Source: Candidatus Hermodarchaeota archaeon (GTDB lineage Archaea > Asgardarchaeota > Lokiarchaeia > Sigyniarchaeales > SOKP01). From it: a stretch of 28,653 nt of DNA. Location: the NCBI GenBank assembly GCA_048885525.1, contig JBHLLP010000044.1:1-28653 (forward strand), written 5' to 3'. The translations under genes were made by a program, and so were the position numbers. Within the stretch, counting starts at the first letter, position 1, and every line of letters starts with the position of its first letter. Positions 9,182 through 28,653 of the stretch are shown here, piece by piece. The notes below the pieces were generated by a model that saw only the letters and a program-made list of their open reading frames with translations, was not told the origin of the DNA and searched no databases.

Positions 9182-9195
9182 TTAATTCTTGAGGA

Positions 9196-10041: not shown

Positions 10042-10072
10042 TTTAGTAGGATAATATTATTAATATTATACT

Positions 10073-10924
10073 TCAAGATTTTAAAAATTTGATAATATGT
10101 TGATTAATTATATGAGGATATTCTAATATTGATTGATGACCAGCGTTCTCAATAACAATAAACTTACTATTAGGGAGCTTTTCATGAATTCTTTGAGTAA
10201 TGACCAAAGGAATTGTTCTATCTTTATCTGCGGCAATTATTAAGACCTCATTTTTAATTTCATGTAATCGCTCATAAGTATTATGGGTTTTTAAAACTTC
10301 ACCTAGATGATAATAATCTCGTTCTGTTAGACCATAAGCAGTTTTTTCTTCTACTAAATCCTCTACCGACCAGATATTATGAAACTTCTTTTTTGGATTC
10401 TCTTTCATTTGTTTCCAAAATTCTCTAGAATAACTTTTCTTAGCACGTTCGATAAATAAATTTAGTGGATCTTTTTGTAGTGATTTATTATCTTTAATAG
10501 CTTTATTTATATACCATTCAATTCCTTGGTCAGGTAAAGCACCTGGTGGCACGATACCGGCTATTGTATTGATTAATACGATTTTGTTGATTCTTTTTGG
10601 ATATTTTAAACAGATGTTTTGTACTATCATCCCACCTAAACTATGTCCGATTATATGCGGCTTCTCTATTTTAAGATAATCTAATAAAGCATTGATATCA
10701 TTAGCAAAAAGTTCCATCGAATAAACACCATCAGGTCTATCTGACTTTCCAGCTCCTCTATTATCAAATCTTATAACTTTGAAATGTTCTGATAACTCTC
10801 CAAATTGAGCACGCCAATGTTCTTTTCTATCACCAAAACCGTGCACTAATAGGACTGGGTCTCCTTCGCCCCTTATTTCATAGCAAATTTTTATACCGTT
10901 AACATCGGCAAATAAATCAGTCAT
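10073..10924 (-). CDS. Alpha/beta hydrolase (paralog C)
   Basis: HGFG, DNRGAGKS, GHSLG, KDR, AGHQ. Confidence 0.92.
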   Translation of the reverse strand: MTDLFADVNGIKICYEIRGEGDPVLLVHGFGDRKEHWRAQFGELSEHFKVIRFDNRGAGKSDRPDGVYSMELFANDINALLDYLKIEKPHIIGHSLGGMIVQNICLKYPKRINKIVLINTIAGIVPPGALPDQGIEWYINKAIKDNKSLQKDPLNLFIERAKKSYSREFWKQMKENPKKKFHNIWSVEDLVEEKTAYGLTERDYYHLGEVLKTHNTYERLHEIKNEVLIIAADKDRTIPLVITQRIHEKLPNSKFIVIENAGHQSILEYPHIINQHIIKFLKS

Positions 10925-11030
10925 AAATATTAAAAAATCCTAATAAAAATAAGTATTATCATAAATTAATTTTAAGAATTATGGCTTCTTTAAATATATA
11001 CTTTTACTAAATAGAATTTAACGAAAGCAC

Positions 11031-11795
11031 ATGATAGAAAAAAAGCTGTTAATTAAAAGTGCTAATGGAAGCGATCTTCACGGGATCCATTATTTGGAAA
11101 GTAAAGAATCAAAATATCCATCTTTACTAATAATGTGTCATGGTTTTACGGGTGATAAATACGAGTGGGGTCGATTTCCTAAATTAGCTAAAGCTTGTAA
11201 TAAAGAGGGCTTTGATGCACTTATATTTGACTTTACAGGCTCTGGAGAAAATAAGAGAGTGCCTATAACCTTATTTAAGCAGATTGCAGATTTAGAATCA
11301 GTGTATCAATGGGTTCAAAATCAAAACTATAGAAATATAGCGGTATTAGGATTATCATTTGGAGGGCTTACTGCATTAGGAGCAAATTTACCCGGAATCA
11401 CAACCTATATTTTTTGGGCACCAGTTTTATTTCTTCATACAACTGATGATCAAGCCAATTGGTTCAAGGATTTAAACAAAGGTCCTGTAGAAATTCCATC
11501 AACTATAGAAGGAAAACCTATAATCATCGATATGACATTTATGACAGATTTTGCAAAGCTTCGAGTAAAATCTCATTTAAAAAACTTGGATTATCCCGTA
11601 TTAATTTTGGTTGGAACATCTGATGAATCAACGCCATGCGAATTAACAAAAAAAGCCTTTAATTTCCTTCCAAATAAAGATGAAAACAAGTTTGTAGCAA
11701 TAGAAAATGCCCCTCATGACTTCGAAGGTGAACATCTTAAAGAATTTATAAAGCATACAATTGACTGGTTGAAATTCCATTTTGGTGTAAAATGA
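11031..11795 (+). CDS. Alpha/beta hydrolase (esterase/acyl-CoA thioesterase-like, distinct subfamily)
   Basis: CHGFTG, FDFTGSGE, GLSFGG, G..DE, APHDF triad motifs. Confidence 0.9.
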   Translation: MIEKKLLIKSANGSDLHGIHYLESKESKYPSLLIMCHGFTGDKYEWGRFPKLAKACNKEGFDALIFDFTGSGENKRVPITLFKQIADLESVYQWVQNQNYRNIAVLGLSFGGLTALGANLPGITTYIFWAPVLFLHTTDDQANWFKDLNKGPVEIPSTIEGKPIIIDMTFMTDFAKLRVKSHLKNLDYPVLILVGTSDESTPCELTKKAFNFLPNKDENKFVAIENAPHDFEGEHLKEFIKHTIDWLKFHFGVK

Positions 11796-11799
11796 TTAA

Positions 11800-12633
11800 T
11801 TATAAAAAGTCTAGGATAATTTGATTTACGTCTGGAGCTTTTTCTAAGTTAACCCAATGGCTTCCTGGAATTACCTTTAATGTACTATTTATAATCTTTT
11901 CATGCAGCTGATCTCTTGCTGCTTTTGAAGCAAGTTTATCTTTATCTCCAGCAATTATTAAAGCTTTATTTTTAATTTCATGCAATCGATTCAATATTTT
12001 ATGAGTGATCAAGGTATTAGTTAGGTTATTAATATCTTGAGGAGTTACGGGGTCAATTCTTTCACTTTCAATTAAATCATTTGCAGAAAAAATTCCATGG
12101 AATTTTCTCTTTGGATCTTCCTTCATTAATTTAATGAACTCGCGAGAGAATCTTAATTTCATTTTTTCATAAAAACTCTTAATAGGATCCTTTAATCTTG
12201 CTTTATATATAGCAATCTGGTTTTCTTTATACATTTGTATGCCCACTTCATCGAGTGGTAAATCTGGAAATGAGCACATAAGAATTATCTTATTAACGTA
12301 CTCAGGATATTTTAAGGTAAAATGTTGTATAATTGCTCCTCCCAAAGAGTGCCCTATAAAATGTGCTTTTTCAATTTTCATAAAATCCATTAATCCCTTT
12401 AAATCCTCAACTAACATTTCCATCGTGTAAGATATATTCGGTCTGTCCGATTTTCCAGAACCCCGATTATCTAATATTATTACTTTATACTTTTTTGATA
12501 ATTCACCAATCTGTGCTATCCAATATTCTTTTTTAGCAGCAAATCCATGTATAAGAAATACAGGGTATCCTTCTCCATAAATTTCATAACAGATTTTTAT
12601 TCCATTAATATTTTCAGCAAATAATTCAGTCAT
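11800..12633 (-). CDS. Alpha/beta hydrolase (paralog D)
   Basis: HGFA, DNRGSGKS, GHSLG, KDK, GSHW. The start ATG 12633 (MTELFAE) is chosen by alignment with paralogs and a TTATAA box at 12658-12663. Confidence 0.9.
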   Translation of the reverse strand: MTELFAENINGIKICYEIYGEGYPVFLIHGFAAKKEYWIAQIGELSKKYKVIILDNRGSGKSDRPNISYTMEMLVEDLKGLMDFMKIEKAHFIGHSLGGAIIQHFTLKYPEYVNKIILMCSFPDLPLDEVGIQMYKENQIAIYKARLKDPIKSFYEKMKLRFSREFIKLMKEDPKRKFHGIFSANDLIESERIDPVTPQDINNLTNTLITHKILNRLHEIKNKALIIAGDKDKLASKAARDQLHEKIINSTLKVIPGSHWVNLEKAPDVNQIILDFL

Positions 12634-12691
12634 AAAAAATAAATAATACATATAGAATTATAACTTTATTGCTTTAAGAAGAATAACCTGA

Positions 12692-15046
12692 TTAAACGGC
12701 TTTTTCAATAATCTTAGGTGGAGTTAATTTTAGAAACTTAAAATTTTCAAAAATTTTTGATAATTCATCGTTAGAAATTATAGAATTAAGCCTTTTAGTA
12801 CTCGAATTTGTATTTACAACATTTTTAACTATAATCTCACCATAATGATTTTTAAGCAAATTCTGCACATCATAAGAATCCTTACCAACTTGATAAATCT
12901 TGCATTCATTGAGTTGCTTACTTAACTCATAAATTACTTTAAGAGTCAATTTTTTAAATTTGGGGAATTTTCTTAAAATTATCAGGTTTATTTCTTCAAA
13001 ATTTTTAATTTTTATTAGTTCCGCTAACTTCTGTGAGATAAATTTCTTAAAATCAAGTTTTAATTCTTGAAGTGAATTTCTTTTTAAGTCTCCCAATTTG
13101 AACTGCTGTAACATTGTTCTTTTCTTAAAAATCTCAGAATACCCTCCAAATCCAATCATCCTTAGAACTTTGCCTTTGTAATTAGGGTTTTTAATTATTT
13201 TTAAATATACTTTATTGAATTCCTTTATAATTTTATTTTGAATGAATTCATGAAATATTTTTAATGAAGTGTCTTTATTTGGTAAGAAGCTATTATTAAA
13301 TGCTTCAAATATTTTATCAATAGCATCCAATTCATCAATTTTGTATTTTTTTAGTTCCTTGATGAGATTCAATGGAAGATAGGAAGAGATATATTCAATA
13401 CCTGCCCATACTAACTCAATTGCTGTTTTTATATTAACTCTTCTTAGAGGTTTCATAATTTTAATATTATTGCTCTTTATTACTATTGGGTTTTTTTCAC
13501 ATAAGATAATATTAAAGGGTTGGATTTCATGGGTTAGAGGATGGGTTTCATCGGGAATAAGATATCCCTCTGAAAATTGGCAGATATAACTCCCCAGAAT
13601 GGGTTTTTGTGCCAAATCCCATTCAACTAAAATTACTTTATTAATATCAAGTAAATTTATTTCATAGTCTAATTCAACATTCTGATTAATTTGGGCAGTA
13701 TTCATTATTTTAGGTTCAGAATTGCCCCAAAAATTCTTAATTTCATAATGCAACGGATTATTTCCACTGAAAATATCTTTAAATACGGGATAGTTTTCAA
13801 TAAAATTATTATTATCAGTATATTCCAAATGATGGCTCTCAAATCCACACTTTTCAAGAATATAATAATGTAGTGGAGTTTCATTCTTGAATGGTGAAGT
13901 CCAGATTAAAGTAGGATAATTATATCTCTTAATAAATTTCATTTGTCTTAACTTATCACTTTGAGTGTTTGTTATAACTAAGGATCGAAGAAACGCATGT
14001 TTTAATTTTAAACCTTCTAAATAAATACCCCTTAATTTTTTCATGTAATCTTGGATTTTAGAAAAAATCTTGCTATAGTTGTTAAATTTACAGTTCTGTG
14101 CAATAGTAATAAATGCATTTACTTCTTCTTCTGGTTCCATATTTAATATGGCTTCATTAACTAAATCTAACGTCCTCTTGTTCATTATTTCTTTTAAATT
14201 AGTCTTAGAATCTTTATGAAACTCTTTTAAATAATCATTAATATTAAAATCAGATTCAAATTTATGTAATAGCAAGTATTTTAGAATTGGTTCTTCAATT
14301 TTATTTACTTTTATAAGTTTAAATACATCTCTCAGGAGAAGTTTCGGAAAATTGATCATTAAAATCTGACTATTAAGTAAAATCTCAACTCTTTTTGAAA
14401 AGTTAAAATTCTCGAAGTTAGAAATTGCTGTACTTATCACTTTTGGATATTTATCTAAGTTTTTATCAGCTAATTCTTTGAATTGTACTGAATATTTTAA
14501 GAACTGTTCATATAAGTTATATTTTAATGTAATTTCACCTATTTTCAAGATATATTCAAAATCTCTTGATTCATCAAACGCTTGATGTAAGAAATTAATT
14601 GCTTCATAATATTTAGTACGCTTAATTAGCTCCTCTGCTTTCATAGTATAGCTTGCTGTTTTACTTTTTTTAACCATACTGAAATCTGACGTAAAATACA
14701 TTTTAGAAATATTTTGACATATCGCTTGGCAAACTTGATTTTCAAGTAATAACAAAATTTTAACAATATGCTTACAAAATTTAGTTCCTTTTTTAAAATC
14801 AGGACAATCATGAATAATTTTAAATCCCAAACCATCTTGAAAAATATTGATCACATACCGAGAATTTCCCGATCCTTGCAGTTCCGATATAACTTTAATA
14901 CTTGGATCTTTTTCAACATTAAAACTAATAATATTTTTATTAGGGATATTTTTTCCTCTATTAAACCTAGCACCATGTACGTGTCTTCTAAAAAAATCCG
15001 CATTTTTGAGATTATTTTTTAAATCTATTATTAACACCTCCTTCAT
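12692..15046 (-). CDS. Large hypothetical protein with N-terminal SWIM-like Zn finger
   Basis: V/L.GS...Y.I.I......HDCPDF.....CKHIV..LL matches the SWIM pattern, with His replacing the first Cys. The rest is mostly helical with no recognisable domain. Confidence 0.75.
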   Translation of the reverse strand: MKEVLIIDLKNNLKNADFFRRHVHGARFNRGKNIPNKNIISFNVEKDPSIKVISELQGSGNSRYVINIFQDGLGFKIIHDCPDFKKGTKFCKHIVKILLLLENQVCQAICQNISKMYFTSDFSMVKKSKTASYTMKAEELIKRTKYYEAINFLHQAFDESRDFEYILKIGEITLKYNLYEQFLKYSVQFKELADKNLDKYPKVISTAISNFENFNFSKRVEILLNSQILMINFPKLLLRDVFKLIKVNKIEEPILKYLLLHKFESDFNINDYLKEFHKDSKTNLKEIMNKRTLDLVNEAILNMEPEEEVNAFITIAQNCKFNNYSKIFSKIQDYMKKLRGIYLEGLKLKHAFLRSLVITNTQSDKLRQMKFIKRYNYPTLIWTSPFKNETPLHYYILEKCGFESHHLEYTDNNNFIENYPVFKDIFSGNNPLHYEIKNFWGNSEPKIMNTAQINQNVELDYEINLLDINKVILVEWDLAQKPILGSYICQFSEGYLIPDETHPLTHEIQPFNIILCEKNPIVIKSNNIKIMKPLRRVNIKTAIELVWAGIEYISSYLPLNLIKELKKYKIDELDAIDKIFEAFNNSFLPNKDTSLKIFHEFIQNKIIKEFNKVYLKIIKNPNYKGKVLRMIGFGGYSEIFKKRTMLQQFKLGDLKRNSLQELKLDFKKFISQKLAELIKIKNFEEINLIILRKFPKFKKLTLKVIYELSKQLNECKIYQVGKDSYDVQNLLKNHYGEIIVKNVVNTNSSTKRLNSIISNDELSKIFENFKFLKLTPPKIIEKAV

Positions 15047-15060
15047 TTAAGAATGCTATT

Positions 15061-17673
15061 TTATTGATTAGTAATAATTTCAGATATCAATTTTGGAAAT
15101 TCCCTCCACTGATTCAATGTTAAAAGAACACCACTTGCTTCTTCGACCATTTTTTTAGCCATCACAGGAGAAAAATTAAATTTGGGAACAACCATAACAA
15201 ATTTAACATCTTTTTCTCTCATCTTCTTCAATTCATTTAAGCTATTTTTAAAATCAAATATATCTGCATCTGTAAAAAGTACATTTAATTTATGTTTAGA
15301 TCGAGCCTTTTTCTCAAATTGATGATTAGCCCATTTAAGAGCAGAGTTAATACATGTGCCGCCTCTCGCTTGAATATCCAGTAATTCATCAACAACCTTC
15401 TCTAACTCTACACCTTCATCTAAATTTTTAATTCTATGAGTGTTTGACTCAAAAAAAGTGAGTGCTAATTCTTCTGGCTTGAATGCATAGACCAACATTG
15501 TAGCACAGAGCGCCATTTGCGATAATTTTAGTCCTGTCATACTACCACTGATATCCAATTCAAGAACTAAACAACGTAGACCTTGGCTTGTTTTAGCCAC
15601 CAAAAAATCATCATTTGAGATCAAATCAACTGTTTTCCCACCTTCTAAAAGATTGCTTACAGATTCTTCGAGATCAATTAGTTCAAAATCATCACCTGGC
15701 GTATAAGGAATTACAATATTTTCTACAATTGGCCCTGAATTAGCTGAGCCGATTAAAGAGTTTGCAGATCTAATGCCCAGATCTATCATAATATGTTTAA
15801 TAATCTCTTTTAATTTTGTTTTAACCTTTATTGAGATATTATGGCGTGAAAAAAACCATTGTTCAAGGAGATCTAAACCACTTCCTGCTCCTAATGAAGA
15901 AAGCGCAGATTCTAGAGCAGCATCACCCATATCTTCAGCAATATTAAGGACCTGCGACAAAAATTTTTCACTTAAAGCACTTAATGCATCCATATTAGTG
16001 GTTTTAGGTGGTGCGGCTCCCATGGCACTTCTTATAATTTGTTCAACTTGCTGAGGACTAAGTTTTAATTTTTTAAGGTAATCCTTATAGGCTTGATAGG
16101 TTAATGAATGTTCCTCCACCATTCTTTTAAAATATTTGAAATTTGCCTCAATCATACTAAGAATTTCTGCTTCTGACATTTTTAACTGCTTTCCTGCCTT
16201 TTTTATTGAATTAATATTAGGAAGAAATCCCATTTCATTAAAATTTTTAACAATATTTCTTAAAATATTTTTATTCACTGCAATTTCTGTGGTTTTATTA
16301 ACTACTTCTTGAATTTTATTAGATAACTGAGATTTACATACAAAATCAGAACAATTATCTTGAGAGGCAATTAAAGTATCAGCTAAATTTTTCATTTGAG
16401 CATTTAAAACACCTGGTTTTACATAACTTATTTTAAGTTCTTGAACTTCTTTATCGATTGTTTTAGACAATAACTTTCGCCATGAAGGAGTTTTTATAGG
16501 ATTTTTTATTAAATTTTTTCGTATATCCTCAAAATTATGTTTCTTATCGACACTATCTAAATCAGTACTAACTTTCTCTAAATATTTATCACTTATAACG
16601 CCCCCAAAATATTGATCATAATTCTTAACACTTTGAAGGGCATCTTTAAAGGGTAAATCTAAACTATTTTTAATAATATTGTCTATTTCTTGCTTCTCAA
16701 AATCAAGATTTGACCCCATTACTTTAGTAGCTCTAAACAAATCATTGAGATTTCGTTTTCCACGTTTTAAATTATTTTTAAGAAGTTCTTTCATAGTTTC
16801 TTTTCCTGTACTATCTAGGATTTTCCCTTTTAAACCAAATTCAGCAAGGCTTAAAGCATCATAAAAGTTCTTTTTAAAAGTATTTTCTAAAGATTTCTTA
16901 AATTCAATTAAATTATCTACTTCTACTTTTCCTATATCATCTTTACTTAAATCTTTATTTTTAACAAATTGAGACAATATTTTTTCTCTTGGTACACTAG
17001 ATTTTTTAATTATTTCATCAAGAATTCCTAATTTCCTCGCAAAATTAATATCTTCTGGCTCTAAATGATTTACCTTTTTCCTTAAAAGTCCTTTTGCTTT
17101 CTCTAATAAAGATTTAAGATCTGGGATTTCATCAAAATGAACAATTGCATTTCTTTCAATTACATCAAGAGCTGTTTTATATGGGTCCTCCTCAAGTTCA
17201 CGAGCAAATCTATTAAAAAAAGTATTAAAAGTCGAATCCATCATCGTCTCCAAATCTAATCCTTCGATCTCAACAAAATAATTTTTCAAGAGCTCTAAAT
17301 CATCATAGATTTCATCCAAATCACTAAAATCCTTAGAAATATCATCTATTAAATCTTTAGGTTTAGTATGATCAAAAATATCAAGATTTTGTATTTCACT
17401 TGAAATTGTATTATTTAATGGATCTAGATACGTTAAAAGTTCTCTTGCTATTTGTTTGGCTAAGTCTTGATTCTCTAAGGGGCTAGTTACTACCGCAACT
17501 TCTAAAAAGTCTTCAATATCACACATACCTCTATTTAAGAATCTTGCAAAGATCAGTTTACACATAGCAATTGCTTGTCTAACAGATGGTTTAATTATAC
17601 ATTTTTCATGGGTTCTCATAGCATTTATAAATTTGAGTGAAAACCAAACTGGATTAGTTGGAAATAATATCAT
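15061..17673 (-). CDS. VWA (von Willebrand A, MIDAS) domain protein, MoxR-associated
   Basis: C-terminal DISGSM (DxSxS), GGT and FTDAD MIDAS residues; YTPGDD...ID motif typical of MoxR-partner VWA proteins; GAGG SD-like sequence upstream. Confidence 0.9.
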   Translation of the reverse strand: MILFPTNPVWFSLKFINAMRTHEKCIIKPSVRQAIAMCKLIFARFLNRGMCDIEDFLEVAVVTSPLENQDLAKQIARELLTYLDPLNNTISSEIQNLDIFDHTKPKDLIDDISKDFSDLDEIYDDLELLKNYFVEIEGLDLETMMDSTFNTFFNRFARELEEDPYKTALDVIERNAIVHFDEIPDLKSLLEKAKGLLRKKVNHLEPEDINFARKLGILDEIIKKSSVPREKILSQFVKNKDLSKDDIGKVEVDNLIEFKKSLENTFKKNFYDALSLAEFGLKGKILDSTGKETMKELLKNNLKRGKRNLNDLFRATKVMGSNLDFEKQEIDNIIKNSLDLPFKDALQSVKNYDQYFGGVISDKYLEKVSTDLDSVDKKHNFEDIRKNLIKNPIKTPSWRKLLSKTIDKEVQELKISYVKPGVLNAQMKNLADTLIASQDNCSDFVCKSQLSNKIQEVVNKTTEIAVNKNILRNIVKNFNEMGFLPNINSIKKAGKQLKMSEAEILSMIEANFKYFKRMVEEHSLTYQAYKDYLKKLKLSPQQVEQIIRSAMGAAPPKTTNMDALSALSEKFLSQVLNIAEDMGDAALESALSSLGAGSGLDLLEQWFFSRHNISIKVKTKLKEIIKHIMIDLGIRSANSLIGSANSGPIVENIVIPYTPGDDFELIDLEESVSNLLEGGKTVDLISNDDFLVAKTSQGLRCLVLELDISGSMTGLKLSQMALCATMLVYAFKPEELALTFFESNTHRIKNLDEGVELEKVVDELLDIQARGGTCINSALKWANHQFEKKARSKHKLNVLFTDADIFDFKNSLNELKKMREKDVKFVMVVPKFNFSPVMAKKMVEEASGVLLTLNQWREFPKLISEIITNQ

Positions 17674-17710
17674 ATTATTTTTCCTCTAAAAAATGAATTA
17701 AATTTTAAAT

Positions 17711-18883
17711 TTAAGCGGAACCTACAACTTGAGAAATGATATTTTTAATGATATCATTTGCTTTAACTCCTGGTTTTGTTTGTATCGCTCCGAATAACAC
17801 GTTACTAGCAATTTCTCCAAGAACTTTATCAGGATCTTTTTTAACTTTTTTTTGTGCTACTCCAGTAAGACGTGCTAGCGCGATACCACTCCGTAAACTA
17901 GCAGGCGTTTGAATTTGATGATGAGTGCGAGTCCGATTAATTAATAAGTATATTTTCTCAAGGGTGCCTTCGTTTATTTTATAATATGGATTATTATGCT
18001 CAATTATCTTCATCTCTGTTTTCTTATCGGGATAATCAAGCTCAATCCATACATTAAATCGATCTTTCAAAGCTTCTCCTAATCTGTGTGTCCCTACTAA
18101 CTCTGAGGGATTCATAGCTCCAATAAAGAAAAATCCTGGCGAAGCCTTTATTCTTCCTATGTGTGGTATTCCTAGAGTTTTTTCTTCTAATGGTTCTAAT
18201 AGGGAATTTTGAGTGTATTCTGTAGCTCTATTAATTTCATTGGCAAGAAACACTCCTCCATTTAACATAGCCTTTATTAAAGGACCTGGATTAAATGCAT
18301 CAAAAGAAAATCCCTTCTGTATTGTAGTCGCAGGGTTGAAACTTCCGACAAGATGAGCAGGCTTGGTTGATTCATCAAATGTTATCCATTCGAAAGAATC
18401 ATTCCCAGTGATTTCTGCTCTTGATTGGGCATAATATCTGCATAATGTTGTTTTTCCAATCCCTGGTGGTCCCACTAAAATTGGGTATAGATTTGATGCG
18501 TCTGCTTCATACATTAAATCAAGTGCATCTTGATATTGACCACTTAAAACAATTTCCATTTTTTCTCCCTTTTGAGAGAGAAGATTCTTCTCAAAAAGTT
18601 CTTTTAAAGTTAATGGTTTTTTGGATGTTTGAGCTTTTGGTGATTGTTTCAGATATGGAGAATTTTTTAAAATTGCCAAATTAACTTGAGTACTTTTTTG
18701 ATTAGGTTTTTGTGATATCCCAGTTTTTTGAGTAGGTTTTATAGCGCTGGATTTTGTTGATGTTGTTGATTTTTGAACAGCTTTTTTCTGAGGAGATTTT
18801 GTAGTTGGAGATTTCGGTCCTGGCTTTTTAGATGGAATAGATTTTGATGGCATGGTCTTTTTGGGTGCTGGTTTTTTCGCCAT
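17711..18883 (-). CDS. MoxR-family AAA+ ATPase with N-terminal Lys/Pro/Ser-rich extension
   Basis: Walker A GPPGIGKT, F.PGPL, Walker B variant FLANEINR, QN.LL..LEE, AMNP.E..GT..L.EAL.DRF, lid SLR. Confidence 0.93.
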   Translation of the reverse strand: MAKKPAPKKTMPSKSIPSKKPGPKSPTTKSPQKKAVQKSTTSTKSSAIKPTQKTGISQKPNQKSTQVNLAILKNSPYLKQSPKAQTSKKPLTLKELFEKNLLSQKGEKMEIVLSGQYQDALDLMYEADASNLYPILVGPPGIGKTTLCRYYAQSRAEITGNDSFEWITFDESTKPAHLVGSFNPATTIQKGFSFDAFNPGPLIKAMLNGGVFLANEINRATEYTQNSLLEPLEEKTLGIPHIGRIKASPGFFFIGAMNPSELVGTHRLGEALKDRFNVWIELDYPDKKTEMKIIEHNNPYYKINEGTLEKIYLLINRTRTHHQIQTPASLRSGIALARLTGVAQKKVKKDPDKVLGEIASNVLFGAIQTKPGVKANDIIKNIISQVVGSA

Positions 18884-21033: not shown

Positions 21034-21849
21034 TTATAAAGAAATAATCAAAATTATCAAATAAACAAGCATTAAATTACCCAAAATAATCCCTGTGTCT
21101 TTTAATGAGGTTCTACCTAATAGATCAGTTCTAGGTTTTCTATAGATATATAGAATCCCTAGGGGAAAAAATAAAATCGGCAAGAATATCAAATAATTAG
21201 TAATTAAAAATGAAATTACCACAATCATCAAAGAAACTGCACAAGCTATCCAAATTACCAATTGGGAAGTTCTAGGTTTTAATTTCGCCAATGAATCTCC
21301 ATCAATCATTTCATGAACCATTTGACCTGTAAATGCTACAGCTGTTATAGCTGCTAATATTAGAGATTCATTTAATTCCATTTCGGGAAAAAAATTCATG
21401 AAAACATCTCCAGCATTAATTTTAATCATAAAATAAGGTAAAATAATATGTGAAACTCCTAAAATAATATGATTAATAATAACAAGCTTTTTGAACTTAC
21501 AATAGAAGACAACCAGAAAAACTATAAGTATTAAGTATATACTGAGAATAGGTCTTAGTAAAATATCATTTATAAAACACATTGTTCCTAGTATAAAACT
21601 TGCCATCGCTAGAACTGCAATTTCTTTTCTACTATATCCTTCCACTCTTTCCAAAGTTTCTTTTTCAGTAGGATCAGTCATATCAATGATATCATTTAAC
21701 GTATTCCCAGTTATTGCATAAAAAGCAAAACCAGCTAATATCCAAATCTGTGAACTTATATCATAGCCATTCAAATATATACTAAGTAAACATGGGATCA
21801 ATACAGAAAAAATATATTCTACCCGAAGAAGTTTAAATCCCTTACTCAT
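21034..21849 (-). CDS. UbiA superfamily intramembrane prenyltransferase
   Basis: N-terminal KLLR, first Asp-rich motif NDIIDMTD, Y...K, degenerate second motif HEMIDGD; about 8-9 TM helices. Confidence 0.8.
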   Translation of the reverse strand: MSKGFKLLRVEYIFSVLIPCLLSIYLNGYDISSQIWILAGFAFYAITGNTLNDIIDMTDPTEKETLERVEGYSRKEIAVLAMASFILGTMCFINDILLRPILSIYLILIVFLVVFYCKFKKLVIINHIILGVSHIILPYFMIKINAGDVFMNFFPEMELNESLILAAITAVAFTGQMVHEMIDGDSLAKLKPRTSQLVIWIACAVSLMIVVISFLITNYLIFLPILFFPLGILYIYRKPRTDLLGRTSLKDTGIILGNLMLVYLIILIISL

Positions 21850-22435: not shown

Positions 22436-22539
22436 TTTTTTTTCTCCATTATTTTTTATTTTTTAAATTATAAATTGCTTAAACAATTAATTAATGTTGT
22501 GTATAAAAAATTAAAGGTGAAGAAAAAAGTTTAAACAAA

Positions 22540-22547
22540 TTTAAATA
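22540..22547 (+). promoter_or_regulatory. Putative TATA box (TTTAAATA) of the leaderless PhoU-like gene
   Basis: Located 23-30 nt upstream of ATG 22570 and preceded by an A-rich BRE-like run. Confidence 0.45.
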
Positions 22548-22569
22548 TTAGCCTATACAATAATATTTT

Positions 22570-23460
22570 ATGGAGAGTATATTTAGAAAACTACAAAAAA
22601 TAAGTGGCTCATATTTTGTGAGTTTACCTAAAAAATGGGTTGAAAACTTTAATTTAAGTAGTAAATCACCTGTGTCTATAAATATTCGTACTGATGGCTC
22701 ATTAACAATCTCACCAAAACATGAGCAAGAGGATTCGAATCTAAGAGAGGAACTTACACTTCATTCAAGTCCGTACATTGCCAGAGAAATTGTAAAACAC
22801 TGTCTATCCGGACAAACTAATATAGTTGTAATCTCAGATAAAGAAATAGATAAAGAATTGAGAAGTGAAATAAGATGGTTAGTTAATGGGCTTCCAAATA
22901 CAGAAATAATTGATGATAAAAAACAGAGATTGGTTATACAGAATTTTGGCTATAAAAAGATTCCTACAAAAAAACTTATTCAACGACTCTTATATTTAGT
23001 TGCTGATATGTTAGAAAATATATTAGAAGACAGAGTCGATGATTTGAAATACAATTTTGGTCAGTTAAAAAAATTTTATTTTATATTAGTAACACATATA
23101 CGAACCTATCTTAGGACCGGGATTTATGTCTCAGAAGACACTGATTTTACGCCACTTGAAGCTATGGATTATCGCATGTTTTGCGAAAAAGTTGAAGAAA
23201 TCGGTAAGATTCTTAGAGATATGAGAATAAATGAGAAAGTTAGAGAATTCTTCCTAGAGATTAATCAATATTTTAATGATGTAATGAACGCTTACCTAAA
23301 AAAAGATTATGTTTTAGCCCATAAAGCTTGGCTATTAAAAAATGAATTAGTAGATAAAGCAAATTCTTTAATGAGTAAGTTAGATTATGAGGACAGAGAT
23401 AAGATAAAAGATATGATAAGGATTGCGGAGAAATGTAAAGATATGTCAGCTTTCATATAA
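22570..23460 (+). CDS. AbrB/SpoVT-type DNA-binding domain + PhoU-like helical domains (archaeal phosphate-uptake-regulator family)
   Basis: N-terminal RKLQ..SGSY.VSLPK.W...DGSL.I.P AbrB-fold motif; later helical repeats with E.IG and IAE...D motifs. Confidence 0.82.
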   Translation: MESIFRKLQKISGSYFVSLPKKWVENFNLSSKSPVSINIRTDGSLTISPKHEQEDSNLREELTLHSSPYIAREIVKHCLSGQTNIVVISDKEIDKELRSEIRWLVNGLPNTEIIDDKKQRLVIQNFGYKKIPTKKLIQRLLYLVADMLENILEDRVDDLKYNFGQLKKFYFILVTHIRTYLRTGIYVSEDTDFTPLEAMDYRMFCEKVEEIGKILRDMRINEKVREFFLEINQYFNDVMNAYLKKDYVLAHKAWLLKNELVDKANSLMSKLDYEDRDKIKDMIRIAEKCKDMSAFI

Positions 23461-23467
23461 GAAGTAA

Positions 23468-26400
23468 TTATCTAGTACTTTGGATAAAGCCTTTTTCTTT
23501 TTTCTGTTTTTCTTCCCATTTTTTTCGCTCAGCTCGAAGTCTAAAGAGATCAACATCCTTAAAAATTAAGCCTTCCTCTTTTGGAGGAACATTTCTTTCT
23601 ACCCGCTCTTTTTCTGGTGTATAAATAAGGGAATTCCCATAATCGGCTACGTTTGCAAAGAAGGTGTAAGCATAAATTGATCTACGAGCATCAAAATGAA
23701 CTGCCTTGAAATCAGCAGTAACAGGTGTGAAGGCAGGATTTAAAATAATATCGACAGGGGGCTCGAAGTTTTTTAGTTCAACTCTTAAATCCATATCAAG
23801 AAAATCTCGGCAAGTAGCAATAGCTATTCTACCATATTCTGTATTACACACTATTGTTTTATTAGGTAAACTAGTAGTATCTATTCCTTCTTTAAATCTA
23901 CCTCTTTTGAGACTTATGATGGCAGGGATATGCTTTTCTTGTTGCCAGAGAATTCCATCAGGTCCTATAACTAAACTTATATTGCTTTTTGTTTCAATGT
24001 TGTGATAGGACCCAGGGATAATATACATTCCATATGTCTTAGCAAGATTTAATAAATCTTCTAGAAATTGCGTATATTTGAGATCTACTGTCATTTCTGG
24101 AAACAGTAAAATGTTAATACCTTCTTCATGAGCATCTTCAATCATTTCCTTTACTTTTGATTCAACCTCGTTAATTTTTTCTTCTTTTAGTGTTAATAGA
24201 CCTTTAGGCTTTTCCTCATAAAACTCATTCATTATATCACCAGAGTTTGAGATACCAATTTGAGCAATCCCTACTCTACACTGATTTCTTGGAGACTTTG
24301 GATACTCTTTTAACAAATCCCTGTATTCAATAACATATTTTTTTGTTATACTATCCTTTTCTAAGAAAGTACTGACTTCTTCAGAATACTGTTGAATTTC
24401 AACAATACGAGGTGATTGACTTGATTCTATTGGGCATGATGGTGTAATAATGCCTTCTATACTTCTTGAAACAGAGGGTTTATTAATTGTGTTTAGGGCA
24501 GAAAAGAGTATTTTTTCTTCTTTAGTTATTCTATCTAATCTTTCTAAAACTTCGTTTTCTTTATCCTTATATCCAGCTTTATGAAACAGTTCTGCTGATG
24601 ACTTTAAATAATTCGATGCGTAATTTAAAAATTCTTGCTTTCTATTTACATCTAATTCGTTATCTGCTTGGATTAAATACCAAGCGGCATCGAAATAAGT
24701 TGATGTTGCAAGTGCCCAATCTGAACCATTTTTAAATCCACCCTTATCATACAGATCTGCCGCTTTTCTGAGAATTGATTTAACATTTGGATACAAAGTT
24801 TTTTTGACTTCCATATCATTAGACTGATCAAATTTACATCCCCCTTCTAAAGCTAAACAAAAATTTGAATTTCCCTGAGCTAGGAACTTTAATTTACTTT
24901 CGGTAAAGTAATCGCTAGCTTTTGCAAATAATTTTGCTGCTTCTGCGAATTTTTCTGGATCCTCATAGTTTTCAGCCAATTCCATACTTTCCCAAGCTCT
25001 ACAGAGATGATATATCGCTTCAATTTCTGCTCGTTCTCTTTTAATTTTATACAATATACATATATCCCTGAATTGAGTTGCTGCATTGCCAAATTTTTCA
25101 GCAGCAGCAATATGATCTCCCTTTTTTCCTAAAATTCTTGCCTCATCAAGATTTATTCTAGCAGAACAATGATTCATCCTTACTTTAGCAACTTTCTCAA
25201 GTTTTTTTAATTCTTTTGACCTTCTAACATTTCTCCTAATAAATCTAATTGTAAAAATAGCATTATCAAAAAGATCTCTGGTTTTTTCATAGCTCTTTAT
25301 AGCATCATCATATCTTTCTTTTTTGCTAAGATCTTCAGCTTCTTCTAAATATATCCAAGCCCCATAATATCCTGCTTCGTAATTAAAACTGGGTAGTGTT
25401 TGCAAAATCTCAGTAGCTACTTCATAACTTTCTTTGGCTTTTACATGATTTTCCCTTTTATGATATGCTTTTGCTTTTTCAATAAGATTCCACGCTTTAG
25501 TATATTTTTTCTTTTCAATTGTTCTCTCTTTTAAAGGTTTGTATTCCATTGATGATAATGAATCCTCATGAGCATTTTGCGCTTTCTGATAATACTCTGC
25601 TGAAACCATATGATTTCCTAAACGATCTTCTAAGCGAGCAATATATTCATAACAAGCAGCCGTATAATAATGATAACCTCTATCTGAAGATTCAATAGCT
25701 ATACGTAGAAATAGCTCTCTTGCTTGTATTAGGGGTTTTTCTTCAGTAATTAGAATACCTAATTCCTCATAAAGCAAAGCTAAACGTAATTGTATTGCTA
25801 AAAAAAGTCTATATGATTCAATTGAATATTTAATATTACTTTTTGCTGCCTTTATGGCAAGTTCTAAATTTTTAATTTTTTCTTCTTTATCTTTAGTGAT
25901 ATCCGCAAGAGTCCTATATGCTCTGTAAAGAGAAGTGAGACCAGCTGCTCTTACAGTTCCTCCTTTATATTCTTTTGAGAGATTTTCAGTCTTATTTGCG
26001 TAATGCAACATTTTTTGAATATATTTTTCTTGAGGGTCATCTTCTGACGCAAGAATAGCTAATTGTGAATAAAAATGAGTTAAATACTGGTAAATATATA
26101 TAATATAAGGACCAAATGCAAGTCTTTTCAATGCTTTATTAGCATATTCAATTCCTATTTTAGCATAAGACTTCCGCGTATCCGCCCTTAAAAAACTTCT
26201 GCTTGTGAATTGGTCATAATAAACAATAGGTATGAAATCCATAAAGCAATAAATACCAGTATATAAATTATCGAAGATTTTATCTAGTTTCTGCACTTCA
26301 TGCACATCATTTAGAATTCTCTTCTGTAGATATTCAAATCTGCCAAAAATACCACCAAAATAATCTATACTATATATAGCACCTAATGCTCCACAAATAT

Positions 26401-27304
26401 TTCTTGAGTTTTTAAAAAATATAACAGACTTTTCCAATAGCTCAAATCCTTCTTCAGCGAACTTTACTCGTTCTTTTTTTTCTTCAACATATAAACTCCC
26501 AAATATACAATAGATAAAACCAGTTGCGCTATAAATGTCTCCAAGAATTTGATCATTAATAACTTCATCACAATTTTCAGCCAATTTTAGTATATCTTCA
26601 CATCTTTTTAAAAATCTTTTGTTGATTCTTTCTTGCTTTTTATCTCCATAAGTAAGTTCCGTCCACCTATTCATATGAAACATTAATAAAAATTCGCCAT
26701 ACAATAGCCTACTTCTAATTTCGATTGTATCAAATTCTTTTAAAAGCATCCAAGCCTTTTCTATTAAATTACGACCCTTCTTGCTGTAACACTCTAGTTC
26801 AGAAGGATTAGAACATATAGACACAAAATGCATCATTGGTTCTACGATCACAGCTGATAATCTTATACAATTTTTCGTATCATTTGCTTTTGAATATTCT
26901 TCAATAAGTTCTAAGAGAATATCAACTGATTTTTTTAAATTTTTTCTCGCCTCTTCAAGTGAAGTAATAACTAAGCAACTTTGAGCAAGTGCTTTAGCTT
27001 TGCATTCCTTCCCTAATAGGTTATTATTGGTTTGGATAAAAAGACTTTCCGCATAATGAAACGCATTAACAGCTTGTTCATTCCAATTTAAATAGTCTTT
27101 TTTAATTTCAGACGCATAAACGGCTCGAAAACATATATCTCCTAATTTATCATAAATTTTAGCAGCATCCTTCAACAAACCTTTCTCTAAAAATGATTTG
27201 GCAACTTCTTCATATAAATCTGCCGCTCTCTCCCAATTATAATTACTTTCTTCAACTTTTGCTTTTTTAATTAAAGTTTCTTCTTGGTTACTCTCGACAC
27301 TCAT
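23468..27304 (-). CDS. Giant TPR/SNAP-like solenoid protein with C-terminal carbon-nitrogen hydrolase (nitrilase-superfamily) domain
   Basis: About 950 aa of helical repeats (e.g. AWNLIEKA..., AWIYLEEA..., ARINLDEA..., AWESMELA...), followed by RVGIAQ, LFPEM (Glu), IIPGS, QEKH (Lys), G.IAIATCRD (Cys), NPA and G.SLI. Confidence 0.88.
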   Translation of the reverse strand: MSVESNQEETLIKKAKVEESNYNWERAADLYEEVAKSFLEKGLLKDAAKIYDKLGDICFRAVYASEIKKDYLNWNEQAVNAFHYAESLFIQTNNNLLGKECKAKALAQSCLVITSLEEARKNLKKSVDILLELIEEYSKANDTKNCIRLSAVIVEPMMHFVSICSNPSELECYSKKGRNLIEKAWMLLKEFDTIEIRSRLLYGEFLLMFHMNRWTELTYGDKKQERINKRFLKRCEDILKLAENCDEVINDQILGDIYSATGFIYCIFGSLYVEEKKERVKFAEEGFELLEKSVIFFKNSRNICGALGAIYSIDYFGGIFGRFEYLQKRILNDVHEVQKLDKIFDNLYTGIYCFMDFIPIVYYDQFTSRSFLRADTRKSYAKIGIEYANKALKRLAFGPYIIYIYQYLTHFYSQLAILASEDDPQEKYIQKMLHYANKTENLSKEYKGGTVRAAGLTSLYRAYRTLADITKDKEEKIKNLELAIKAAKSNIKYSIESYRLFLAIQLRLALLYEELGILITEEKPLIQARELFLRIAIESSDRGYHYYTAACYEYIARLEDRLGNHMVSAEYYQKAQNAHEDSLSSMEYKPLKERTIEKKKYTKAWNLIEKAKAYHKRENHVKAKESYEVATEILQTLPSFNYEAGYYGAWIYLEEAEDLSKKERYDDAIKSYEKTRDLFDNAIFTIRFIRRNVRRSKELKKLEKVAKVRMNHCSARINLDEARILGKKGDHIAAAEKFGNAATQFRDICILYKIKRERAEIEAIYHLCRAWESMELAENYEDPEKFAEAAKLFAKASDYFTESKLKFLAQGNSNFCLALEGGCKFDQSNDMEVKKTLYPNVKSILRKAADLYDKGGFKNGSDWALATSTYFDAAWYLIQADNELDVNRKQEFLNYASNYLKSSAELFHKAGYKDKENEVLERLDRITKEEKILFSALNTINKPSVSRSIEGIITPSCPIESSQSPRIVEIQQYSEEVSTFLEKDSITKKYVIEYRDLLKEYPKSPRNQCRVGIAQIGISNSGDIMNEFYEEKPKGLLTLKEEKINEVESKVKEMIEDAHEEGINILLFPEMTVDLKYTQFLEDLLNLAKTYGMYIIPGSYHNIETKSNISLVIGPDGILWQQEKHIPAIISLKRGRFKEGIDTTSLPNKTIVCNTEYGRIAIATCRDFLDMDLRVELKNFEPPVDIILNPAFTPVTADFKAVHFDARRSIYAYTFFANVADYGNSLIYTPEKERVERNVPPKEEGLIFKDVDLFRLRAERKKWEEKQKKEKGFIQSTR

Positions 27305-27390
27305 AGTAAAGATTTTCTTGAAGTCCTATTGATTTCCCTAATTCAATAATTATTTTTTGGAGTTATTAAAATTTAATATATAAAAATCCA

Positions 27391-28653
27391 TTATCTTGTA
27401 CTTTGAATAAATTGCATTTTTTTTTGCTCTTTTTCCCATTTTTTTCGTTCCGAACGTAATTTGAAAAGGTCAATATCTTTATAAATCAACCCTTCTTCTT
27501 TTACTGGAATGATTCTTTCAGTGCGATCTTTCTCGGGGGTATAGATTAGCGAATCTCCAAATTCTGCAACATTAACAAAAAAGCAATAAGCATAAATAGA
27601 TCTACGAGCGTCAAAATGTGCTGCTTTAAAATCAGCAGTAACAGGAGTGAATGCAGGATTGATTACAATATCTACAGGAGGTTCAAAATTTTTTAATTCT
27701 ACTCGTAAATCCATATCAAGGAAATCACGACATATTGCGATAGCAATTGTTCCGTATTCAGTGTTACAGACTAGGATTTTTCGAGGTTTTGAGGTAGTTT
27801 CTATAGCTTCCTTAAACCTTTTATCTTTAAAGTGAATTATTGCCGGAATATGCTTTTCTTGTTGCCAGAGAACTCTATCAGGAGAAATAACCATACTTAT
27901 ATTTTGTTTTGTTTCTTGGTCGTGAAAGGAACCTGGAATTATATACATATTATATTTCCTAGCAAGGTTTGATACTTCTTCTAAAAGTTCTTTATAGTTT
28001 AAATCTATGGTCATTTCTGGAAATATTAAAACACTTATATTATTTTTATTCGCATTAGCAACCATTTCTTGTACCTTATTTCTCACGATCTTTATTTTAT
28101 CCTTTTTAAGTCCCAATAGACCAGAGGATTTCTCTTCAAAAAATTCTGCTATAATATCACCAGTTGTTGATAAGCCAATTTGGGCAATACCTATTCTAAA
28201 TTGACTTTTTTGGGTTTTAGGATCCTGCATAAGAAAATCTAAATAAATTATTTCATATTTTTTCTTTTCAGTTTTTTTTTCTACATACCTTCTTATTATA
28301 TTTTCTGTGATTTGGTGTACCTCACTTAATCTAGGAGATTGACTAATTTCTATAGGACAAGCTGGAGCAATTATACCAGTGGTACTTCCAGAGATTTCAG
28401 GCTTTTTTATCGAATTTAAGGCAGAAAATAAAATTTTTTCTTCCTTTTCAATCAATTCAATACGATTCAATACTTCATTTTGTTTCTCTTCATAACCTGC
28501 TTTACCGAAAAGATCTGCTGTCGATCTTAGAATCTGTTCTCCTAATTTAAGAAGTCTTTCTTTCTCTTTTAGATCCAGCTCTTCATCTGCTTTAATTACA
28601 TGCCATACACCATCAAAATAAGTAGAAGTAGCTATAGCCCAATCTGCACCATT
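27391..28653 (-). CDS. Second TPR-nitrilase paralog (5'-truncated by window edge)
   Basis: The frame stays open from 28653 (NGADWAIATSTYFDGVWHVIKADEELD...), aligning with NGSDWALATSTYFDAAWYLIQADNELD of the first copy, so the track's start at 28470 is an artefact. Intact FPEM/QEKH/ICRD triad. Confidence 0.88.
   Translation of the reverse strand, partial: NGADWAIATSTYFDGVWHVIKADEELDLKEKERLLKLGEQILRSTADLFGKAGYEEKQNEVLNRIELIEKEEKILFSALNSIKKPEISGSTTGIIAPACPIEISQSPRLSEVHQITENIIRRYVEKKTEKKKYEIIYLDFLMQDPKTQKSQFRIGIAQIGLSTTGDIIAEFFEEKSSGLLGLKKDKIKIVRNKVQEMVANANKNNISVLIFPEMTIDLNYKELLEEVSNLARKYNMYIIPGSFHDQETKQNISMVISPDRVLWQQEKHIPAIIHFKDKRFKEAIETTSKPRKILVCNTEYGTIAIAICRDFLDMDLRVELKNFEPPVDIVINPAFTPVTADFKAAHFDARRSIYAYCFFVNVAEFGDSLIYTPEKDRTERIIPVKEEGLIYKDIDLFKLRSERKKWEKEQKKMQFIQSTR

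Follow-up and report, generated by a model that had tools for sequence, protein, structure and literature searches.

Nitrilase domains have been recognised only recently as immune effectors, and as a class they are unexplained. The effector part of DRT1 is its nitrilase, which needs tetramerisation, with a conserved, swapped C-terminus closing the neighbouring active site; its substrate was stated to be unknown in the structure paper of 2026, in which class 3 UG/Abi reverse transcriptases (RTs) bear either a nitrilase or a phosphohydrolase (PMC13275509). DSR2 is NTPase-free: its large sensor region recognises a phage protein by direct binding and controls the oligomeric effector to which it is fused (PMC10981675). 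Here, we describe two adjacent genes at the end of a 28,653-nt stretch of DNA (hereafter, the window) from a Candidatus Hermodarchaeota archaeon (assembly GCA_048885525.1, contig JBHLLP010000044.1). Their products, P0001 and P0002, join a tetratricopeptide repeat (TPR)-like solenoid to a C-terminal nitrilase-fold domain and look like members of an apparently undescribed family of one-protein sensor-effectors. An original prediction, made from the sequence alone, had not recognised the arrangement as a described system; full-text literature searches likewise gave no TPR-solenoid nitrilase family in Asgard archaea, and the word nitrilase is absent from the Asgard defence surveys PMC11291487 and PMC13700489. 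The features of the pair are as follows.

23468..27304, minus strand: solenoid-nitrilase gene P0001 (ORF list, translation; 68 homologues)
24485..27304, minus strand: TPR/SNAP-like alpha-solenoid, residues 1-940 (AlphaFold2, Foldseek)
26585..26944, minus strand: most variable patch of the solenoid, residues 121-240 (dN/dS windows, family identity)
24305..24484, minus strand: linker, residues 941-1000 (disorder in the AlphaFold2 model, motif conservation)
24407-24442, minus strand: conserved linker motif PSCPIESSQSPR (sequence)
24311-24343, minus strand: lead-in of the nitrilase module, KKYVIEYRDLL (sequence)
23471..24304, minus strand: nitrilase-fold (CN hydrolase) cassette, residues 1001-1278 (PF00795, VIA, PADLOC)
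24095-24097, 23933-23935, 23888-23890 and 23810-23812, minus strand: codons of the tetrad residues E1070, K1124, E1139 and C1165
23471..23488, minus strand: C-terminal tail FIQSTR (alignments A4 and A1)
27305..27390, minus strand: 86-nt spacer between the copies (sequence)
27391..28653, minus strand: P0002, with the solenoid end, linker and complete nitrilase cassette (5′ part beyond the contig end)

Both open reading frames (ORFs) lie on the minus strand, as the co-oriented, adjacent paralogs that had been predicted. The ORF of P0001 is complete (1278 codons and 1278 aa, with the stop codon included in its coordinates), and P0002 is represented by its last 420 codons, being 5′-open at the contig end. 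P0002 is cut by the assembly and the gene itself is not broken. No contig was found to overlap the end of the window's contig (C44) and extend P0002, and a solenoid fragment was looked for and not seen at the end of contig C37, the orthologous far flank. The two proteins are 64 % identical over 421 residues (BLASTP, E = 0). Each carries the motifs quoted for it in the original prediction: the linker motif (PSCPIESSQSPR in P0001 and PACPIEISQSPR in P0002), FPEMT, QQEKHIP, CRDFLD and the C-terminal FIQSTR. The enzyme cores had been called nearly identical, which holds for invariant blocks but not for the nitrilase domains overall (68 % identity); the visible solenoid stretch of P0002 is, as had been noted, more diverged from P0001 (60 %).

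Tandem duplication had also been suggested, but a recent one is contradicted by the wider comparison. P0001 has an orthologue elsewhere in copy 2 of locus L035 (85.5 %), P0002 has orthologues of 1276-1298 aa at L038, L083 and L039 (84-89 % identity), and the two nitrilase domains are not sisters in a quick, poorly resolved tree. Because each copy has closer orthologues elsewhere, P0001 and P0002 are, on the sequence comparison, old paralogs and not recent duplicates. The spacer at 27305-27390 contains a TATA-like element, TTTATATA, at 27377-27384 and probably holds a promoter of P0001's own.

The structure predictions support both parts of the architecture, an all-helical solenoid and a nitrilase fold. 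Residues 1-960 of P0001 were modelled by AlphaFold2 as a continuous solenoid of 37 helices with no other domain (predicted local distance difference test score, pLDDT, 89.5; predicted template modelling score 0.79); the solenoid proper, residues 1 to ~940, corresponds to the TPR/SNAP-like region of about 950 aa that had been anticipated. Pfam returned only weak TPR, SNAP and MIT matches for the first 950 residues, Foldseek returned only generic long TPR superhelices (such as IFT-A, Ctr9 and Ski3; template modelling score 0.2-0.35), and a search of the ESM Atlas gave only generic TPR leads below 0.9. No P-loop or NTPase was detected in P0001 by Pfam, NCBIfam, a Walker A search or inspection of the AlphaFold2 model, and no transmembrane segment was detected (maximum KD19 hydropathy 1.57, with a hydrophilic N-terminus). 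With no Walker A motif, NTPase family or hydrophobic segment, P0001 therefore amounts to a soluble arm of helical repeats with a single enzyme attached.

The first helices of this arm (residues 1-35, 27200-27304) have the consensus LL.KA..EE..YNW..AA.LYE, which is almost invariant, even among distant relatives at 22 % identity. They resemble helix 1 of the MIT domain (Pfam MIT: 24.7 bits for P0001; 31.3 bits, above the cutoff, for the relative P0027), and the first helices of P0064 match Vps4 MIT structures at E values around 0.1. These N-terminal helices may be a generic TPR-like cap or a true MIT-like docking element. A distant branch of the solenoid (P0067-P0070 and P0080, at 22-31 % identity; G038:C1:2422231-2424195) ends in a CARDB/BatD-like beta-sandwich, followed by a KaiC-like ATPase in some members and by a nitrilase cassette in one, P0080.

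The enzyme part was modelled separately (residues 939-1278, from an alignment of 35 sequences; pLDDT 86.6). Model residues 1-46, which include PSCPIESSQSPR, are disordered (pLDDT <50), and the folded remainder is the alpha-beta-beta-alpha sandwich of the nitrilases (Foldseek E value 5e-15 to mouse Nit2; VIA Z 25.6, with a root mean square deviation of 3.5 over 239 residues, to the same protein). VIA Z scores of 23-25 were also obtained for over 40 further entries of the superfamily, spread across carbamoylases, amidases, Nit proteins and nitrilases, so the fold singles out no branch. Pfam PF00795 (CN_hydrolase) matched above its gathering cutoff of 23.2 bits in both copies (P0001, 27.8 bits; P0002, 36.1 bits). 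The Glu-Lys-Cys triad of the original prediction is intact and extends to a full tetrad, E1070-K1124-E1139-C1165 (contexts FPE, EKH, FKE and CRD), the columns of which are invariant across 34 sequences; E1139 aligns with the Glu of FQE in Nit2.

As judged by profile scores, the cassette appears to fit defence-type nitrilase models best. PADLOC matched RTasNitrilase in both proteins (P0001, 35 bits; P0002, 52.8 bits), and P0002 also matched RT_UG5-nitrilase (50.3 bits) and CARF_nitrilase (PDLC01989; 49.4 bits); the Drt1a model scored 19.5 bits. Neither protein matched a curated NCBIfam enzyme family, the best being aguB at 20.8 bits against a cutoff of 410. An initial profile search of PDB sequences (alignment A2) was swamped by the TPR columns of other members and was redone with a clean, nitrilase-only alignment of 34 sequences, for which the top match was DRT1 (9yfd, E value 2.4e-4), aligned from the catalytic Cys into the C-terminal basic helix and tail. 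Searches of PDB sequences with phmmer, using the whole of P0001 and also a TIR-type relative, gave no matches.

A basic helix precedes the FIQSTR tail of P0001. In alignment A4, the I, Q, S and T of this tail are invariant and F is at least 90 % conserved; R reaches at least 90 % in alignment A1, not in A4. By analogy with the swapped C-terminus of DRT1, we infer that FIQSTR is a candidate active-site lid acting in trans.

The same solenoid carries other enzymes. Solenoids that are 44-68 % identical end in a TIR domain (TIR_2, 61 bits; ThsB_TIR above cutoff), a calcineurin-like metallophosphoesterase (MPE; 43 bits) or a Cys/His finger of ~45 residues, for which the RING matches are sub-threshold (zf-C3HC4_3, E values 0.17 and 0.0012, below the cutoff). 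Among 81 complete 3′ ends at the 77 loci that were fetched, 67 encode a nitrilase, eight the RING-like finger, five a TIR domain and one an MPE. The TIR-, RING- and MPE-type relatives all retain the linker motif, and the junctions fall at three different points just past it: TIR begins after FLEKDS, the phosphoesterase begins after QFTEE, and the RING type keeps the lead-in of the nitrilase module (KKYEIEYRDLLK.HPKS).

One locus records such a replacement within a close orthologue. The gene at L041 (JBHLPZ010000204.1) is 89.5 % identical to P0001 from residue 296 to residue 1002, and its DNA matches the window on both sides of the exchanged segment, at 92 % identity over 24297-24700 and at 90 % over 22440-23495, the latter comprising the last nine codons and stop of P0001 together with the MazE-like neighbour. 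Between these flanks, 220 nt coding for the RING-like finger stand where the window has 801 nt that code for nitrilase. L041 still has SIQSTR-stop beyond the stop codon of the RING-type gene, with DNA identical to the end of the P0001 gene. In the phosphoesterase-type gene L088, the stop codon is followed after 22 nt by FIQSTR-stop, an independent relic. The relics at these RING-type and MPE-type genes indicate that the nitrilase was ancestral there and was then overwritten. At the level of gene sequence, the C-terminal cassette is thus exchangeable: RING-like and phosphoesterase modules have displaced the nitrilase in situ, and TIR versions exist as well. Swapping of C-terminal domains on one scaffold, which the original prediction had proposed looking for, is therefore found with three alternative modules and, in a 90 %-identical orthologue, as replacement in place.

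The cassette is also found apart from the solenoid. An exhaustive, profile-free search with the cassette alone as query returned 49 cluster representatives at E <1e-30, followed by a gap down to 1e-11. Almost every complete protein of the 49 (about 500-1800 aa) has the cassette at its C-terminus, P0071 being an exception. The N-termini that bear this close clade include the solenoid of P0001 type, the distant solenoid with a CARDB-like domain, classical TPR, beta-helix/PKD, alpha/beta-hydrolase, protein kinase with a RING-like finger, and an Arf-like GTPase; more distant relatives occur on HEAT, LRR and nSTAND3 proteins. A quick tree of the cassette is star-like and poorly resolved, with the solenoid label not monophyletic, and fits, weakly resolved as it is, mobility of the module.

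Several of these other architectures were noted individually. P0072 (658 aa) combines a RING-like finger, a Ser/Thr kinase and the nitrilase cassette. The cassette or its distant relatives end or begin further proteins (P0072, P0096/P0097/P0099, P0163, P0159, P0140/P0152), including giant beta-helix/PKD/TSP3 proteins, an nSTAND3 NTPase with PUA, LRR proteins and TrmB with HEAT.

The solenoid and its enzyme evolve at different rates. Across 40 full-length nitrilase-type proteins, mean pairwise identity rose from 0.38-0.55 (residues 1-450) through 0.55-0.74 (residues 451-950) to as much as 0.89 in the enzyme, with the family-wide minimum (0.38-0.49) at residues 121-240. The ratio of non-synonymous to synonymous substitution rates (dN/dS; Nei-Gojobori method, P0001 against two orthologues at an unsaturated dS of 0.5-0.9) falls along the protein, from 0.52-0.55 in residues 1-225 to about 0.22 in residues 226-700, 0.13-0.15 in residues 701-940 and 0.06-0.07 in the nitrilase. 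The comparison of dN/dS between TPR part and enzyme, suggested at the outset, thus places the first 225 residues ~8-fold above the enzyme. In 40-codon windows from several orthologue comparisons, dN/dS was 0.8-1.3 across residues 121-240, with one window at 2.1, and 0.05-0.25 past residue 460; these are noisy Nei-Gojobori estimates made with one common reference sequence, so they describe a strong gradient and are no proof of positive selection. On these alignments, residues 121-240 are a candidate ligand-recognition surface.

Solenoid-nitrilase proteins were sought in two ways. A word-indexed search returned 68 full-length or partial relatives, and every one with a named source is Asgard (Loki/Promethearchaeota, Hod, Thor, Hermod and Odin). 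A scan of one genome per species (185,579 species) returned 171 relatives, the best 80 of which come from Asgard-labelled or unclassified archaeal metagenome-assembled genomes (MAGs), bar two contigs labelled Pacearchaeota and Nanopelagicaceae. These exceptions, L045 (JAFCGI010000032.1, Pacearchaeota) and L095 (DATKTW010000007.1, Nanopelagicaceae bacterium), carry full Asgard-typical solenoid-nitrilase genes and are probably mis-binned. Judged by these hits, the family appears to be confined to Asgard MAGs.

Within the Asgard archaea, its occurrence is patchy and its copy number variable. A match was found in 46 of 151 sampled Asgard genomes (25/73 of those of high quality) and, in the window's own taxonomic family, in 13 of 25 genomes, with none in the other 12. 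The window's genome (G000) has seven nitrilase cassettes, six on solenoids of P0001 type and one on an unrelated classical TPR protein (contig C3), and two or more copies occur at 18 of the 77 fetched loci. A single-copy, uniformly conserved housekeeping orthologue, the outcome against which the original prediction had been set, is excluded.

The end of contig C54 and the start of contig C49 of the same genome share an exact 77-nt overlap inside a solenoid gene. The second array therefore has three tandem genes, all of them complete, and it is inside these repeats that the assembly is broken. The copies of this array (L002, L003 and L008) have a common upstream element, AAAACATTTTAAATTGAAC-TGAATGTTTATTAATCATTCA, with the palindrome TGAATG-N9-CATTCA; the palindrome is absent from the 86-nt spacer upstream of the window copy.

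The pair lies beside two genes that recur at related loci:

22570..23460, plus strand: MazE/AbrB (SpoVT-AbrB) domain gene, 296 aa, convergent (Pfam PF04014, E value 2.4e-7)
21034..21849, minus strand: UbiA-family prenyltransferase gene (Pfam PF01040)

UbiA relatives adjoin solenoid genes in 16 of the 77 loci (14 at 68-88 % identity), and in the two genomes that were examined in detail, synteny extends to a radical-SAM gene and to the far flank. Between these anchors, copy number (1-3), order and cassette type vary among close relatives. The window and L035 have two nitrilase genes and the MazE-like gene, G117/L039 has three nitrilase genes, G057/L043 has a TIR type and a nitrilase type, L036, L037, L041 and L109 have the RING type, and L042, L075, L090 and L096 have a single nitrilase gene. 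The orthologue of P0002 stands beside UbiA in G117 and L083, and is on a different contig in the genome of L035.

The MazE-like gene occurs at 8 of the 77 loci (59-91 % identity), all at or next to UbiA-anchored sites; it was not seen at the other solenoid loci, and no MazF-like gene lies near it. A toxin-antitoxin pairing was considered and rejected: the gene is convergent, present at few of the loci and 296 aa long, with an AbrB/MazE domain at its N-terminus and no other. The gene belongs to the syntenic flank of the site.

Elsewhere in the window, a MoxR-type AAA+ ATPase (17711-18883; AAA_5, weakly matching the MoxR domain found in MoxR-vWA-beta-propeller ternary systems), a vWA protein of 870 aa (15061-17673) and a neighbour of 784 aa with no family match (12692-15046) form one row on the minus strand (12692-18883), possibly a ternary MoxR-vWA module with a conflict or chaperone function; it shows no synteny with the solenoid site in G117. 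Five alpha/beta-hydrolase (Abhydrolase_1) paralogs stand in a row at 8345-12651, four on the minus strand and one on the plus strand. A Rosetta-stone link from these to the hydrolase-nitrilase fusions was rejected, the similarity being generic (19-31 %). At 198-1643 (minus strand), an MttB-superfamily (trimethylamine methyltransferase-like) gene has a single unbroken frame of 481 codons and, on account of this uninterrupted frame, is apparently a member without pyrrolysine.

We interpret P0001 and P0002 as conflict-type sensor-effectors because the tail is exchangeable and includes TIR, the nitrilase is defence-like, the head is variable, the distribution is patchy, and copies and order are in flux at hotspots; DSR2 is the closest working analogy because there is no NTPase. 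By this analogy, to which we attach about an even chance, both would be Asgard-specific, cytoplasmic, single-polypeptide, NTPase-free proteins with a DSR2-like logic and a DRT1-type nitrilase warhead. The variable head would bind a foreign or abnormal protein, most likely of viral or mobile-element origin, and binding would alter the conformation or oligomeric state. The nitrilase domains, which like those of other nitrilases should depend on oligomer contacts and on a C-terminal lid in trans, in P0001 and P0002 FIQSTR, would then become active. Once active, the enzyme would arrest the cell by hydrolysing a C-N bond in a small molecule or protein that the cell needs.

Several observations weigh against this interpretation. 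The similarity to defence nitrilases is modest and the fold fits all nitrilase branches equally; in the PDB search, Nit2 (E value 2.8e-4) is practically tied with DRT1, matching the other half of the domain. The rate windows are noisy, as described above. Orthologues have been kept at the syntenic site over a dS of up to ~0.9, which is more stable than many defence genes. A conserved partner gene was sought across 12 and then 77 loci, and neighbours recur through synteny only: UbiA, a TauE exporter, methyltransferases, an acyl-CoA dehydrogenase, an ACT protein, radical SAM and the MazE/AbrB-like gene. Co-location with defence genes, which the original prediction had raised, was not found: PADLOC gave no defence-island context among the 77 immediate neighbours, eight of which matched the 'mad2' model (presumably the eight in which Pfam finds methyltransferase domains), one an oxidoreductase model, and single neighbours JAB (two models) and an E1-E2 model; otherwise, Pfam identified metabolic enzymes, giving a metabolic or housekeeping neighbourhood. 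There is no CRISPR context at P0001 and P0002, and scanning the solenoid and nitrilase alignments against viral contigs yielded no relatives. Finally, the RING-like cassette suggests that the target is a bound protein and not a metabolite to be destroyed.

That last observation leads to the main rival explanation, in which the proteins are substrate-targeting protein modifiers: the solenoid would recruit endogenous clients and the cassette would modify them. The nitrilase would then have protein amidase or deamidase activity, the RING-like finger would be a ligase of ubiquitin type and the phosphoesterase would remove phosphate from the client, all feeding an Asgard ubiquitin-like or proteostasis pathway. 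Replacement of the nitrilase by the RING-like finger in an orthologous gene suggests outputs that are interchangeable on the same bound target, and P0072 brings a RING-like finger, a protein kinase and the nitrilase together in one chain. Housekeeping neighbourhoods free of defence islands, the JAB and E1-E2 models and long-term retention at syntenic sites are in keeping with such a role. However, the ThsB-type TIR cassettes, the phosphoesterase, whose motifs we take from the sequence to be CpdA/Mre11-like and not PPP-like, and the defence-type affinity of the nitrilase all fit small-molecule effectors better. Patchiness, copy-number flux and a hypervariable head would be unusual for housekeeping adaptors, and the RING assignment is itself weak, with zf-C3HC4_3 below its cutoff. 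We consider protein modification a rather unlikely alternative. The original prediction had offered both a ligand-gated effector and a substrate-targeted protein deamidase, and the evidence accords with either.

A broader proposal would accommodate both kinds of output. The family may consist of Asgard NTPase-free solenoid receptors that sit at fixed hotspots, where outputs are re-dealt by replacement of the cassette from the linker to the last codons, such that a single recognition scaffold could serve either immunity by metabolite destruction (nitrilase, TIR and phosphoesterase) or tagging of ubiquitin type (RING). In this full form, we regard the proposal as unlikely.

An ordinary metabolic amidase or carbamoylase, with the helical extension merely scaffolding or regulating it, is a good deal harder to sustain. 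The intact tetrad, a generic nitrilase fold closest to Nit2 and carbamoylase structures and the metabolic neighbours would suit it, but the family is absent from most sampled Asgard genomes, including about half of those in its own taxonomic family, and reaches seven copies in one genome; orthologues have non-homologous TIR, RING-like or MPE modules instead, and no curated NCBIfam enzyme family matches. We consider this explanation very improbable. A polymorphic-toxin-like weapon, in which a repeat-rich carrier delivers an exchangeable C-terminal toxin to competitors, would agree with the exchangeable cassettes and with the beta-helix/PKD/TSP3 proteins, perhaps extracellular, that end in the same cassette, but can hardly be reconciled with the hydrophilic N-terminus, the lack of a transmembrane segment or recognisable secretion domain, the lack of a conserved downstream immunity gene at the fetched loci and the typically cytoplasmic location of TPR solenoids.

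Asgard archaea are the closest known relatives of eukaryotes, and the solenoid family is expanded and diversifying in them. It offers a second, simpler setting for the nitrilase warhead, with natural controls in which TIR, phosphoesterase or RING-like modules stand on the same sensor. If immune, the family would add an NTPase-free receptor class unmentioned in PMC11291487 and PMC13700489; if a client-targeting modifier tied to ubiquitin-like tagging, it would be informative about how the protein-quality-control adaptors of eukaryotes arose. In both cases, the replaced cassettes and their relics document, cleanly and in nature, the rebuilding of a modular receptor. Were receptors at hotspots with re-dealt outputs the true explanation, they would represent a prokaryotic forerunner of eukaryotic repeat sensors coupled to TIR and RING outputs and provide a tractable route to the substrate of defence nitrilases.

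Among known proteins, those that act on bound clients provide one comparison. The TPR co-chaperones of eukaryotes join TPR to a U-box (CHIP) or to Metallophos (PP5), and it is these TPR modules that target the RING/U-box ligase or the Metallophos phosphatase to the clients they bind, much as the solenoid might; they have three TPR repeats, in contrast to ~18 in P0001, and the phosphoesterase of the solenoid family has no PPP motifs. Nta1 is a nitrilase-fold amidase that acts on the N-terminal Asn/Gln of proteins; it has no entry among the listed best PDB sequence and fold matches of the cassette, although such lists do not exclude an affinity to it.

Immune proteins with a separate sensor provide others. 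In CARF-nitrilase CRISPR-ancillary proteins, a nitrilase is likewise the output of a sensor domain, the sensor there being the nucleotide-binding CARF and in P0001 the solenoid. STAND/NLR-like proteins (Avs, bacterial NACHT and nSTAND) share a repeat sensor that is variable, a swappable effector and lineage-specific expansion, and a distant relative of the nitrilase cassette does stand on an nSTAND3 protein (P0163); their NTPase switch (NACHT/NB-ARC), however, is absent from P0001, and activation would therefore not proceed via nucleotide-dependent oligomerisation.

The closest comparisons are with DRT1 and DSR2. Like DRT1, P0001 is a large multidomain protein with a nitrilase-fold effector at its end and a conserved extreme C-terminus, and the alternation of nitrilase and phosphohydrolase among class 3 RTs resembles the alternation of cassettes in the solenoid family. 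DRT1 is composed of an RT, helical repeats and a nitrilase, whereas P0001 has a 940-residue TPR-like solenoid in place of the RT; no RT domain was found in P0001 by Pfam, by PADLOC or in the helical model of residues 1-960. DRT1 is bacterial and has a DNA-adduct regulator that P0001 lacks, the solenoid family is archaeal (Asgard), and TIR and RING-like alternatives belong to the solenoid family only, none being reported for DRT1. With DSR2, P0001 shares a single NTPase-free chain in which an enzymatic effector is fused to a large sensor, ligand binding by P0001 being presumed. The two have no sequence relationship. The effector of DSR2 is an N-terminal SIR2, a domain that Pfam does not detect in P0001, and that of P0001 is a C-terminal nitrilase. 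By analogy, DSR2 is nonetheless the best guide to how the solenoid-nitrilase family may work.

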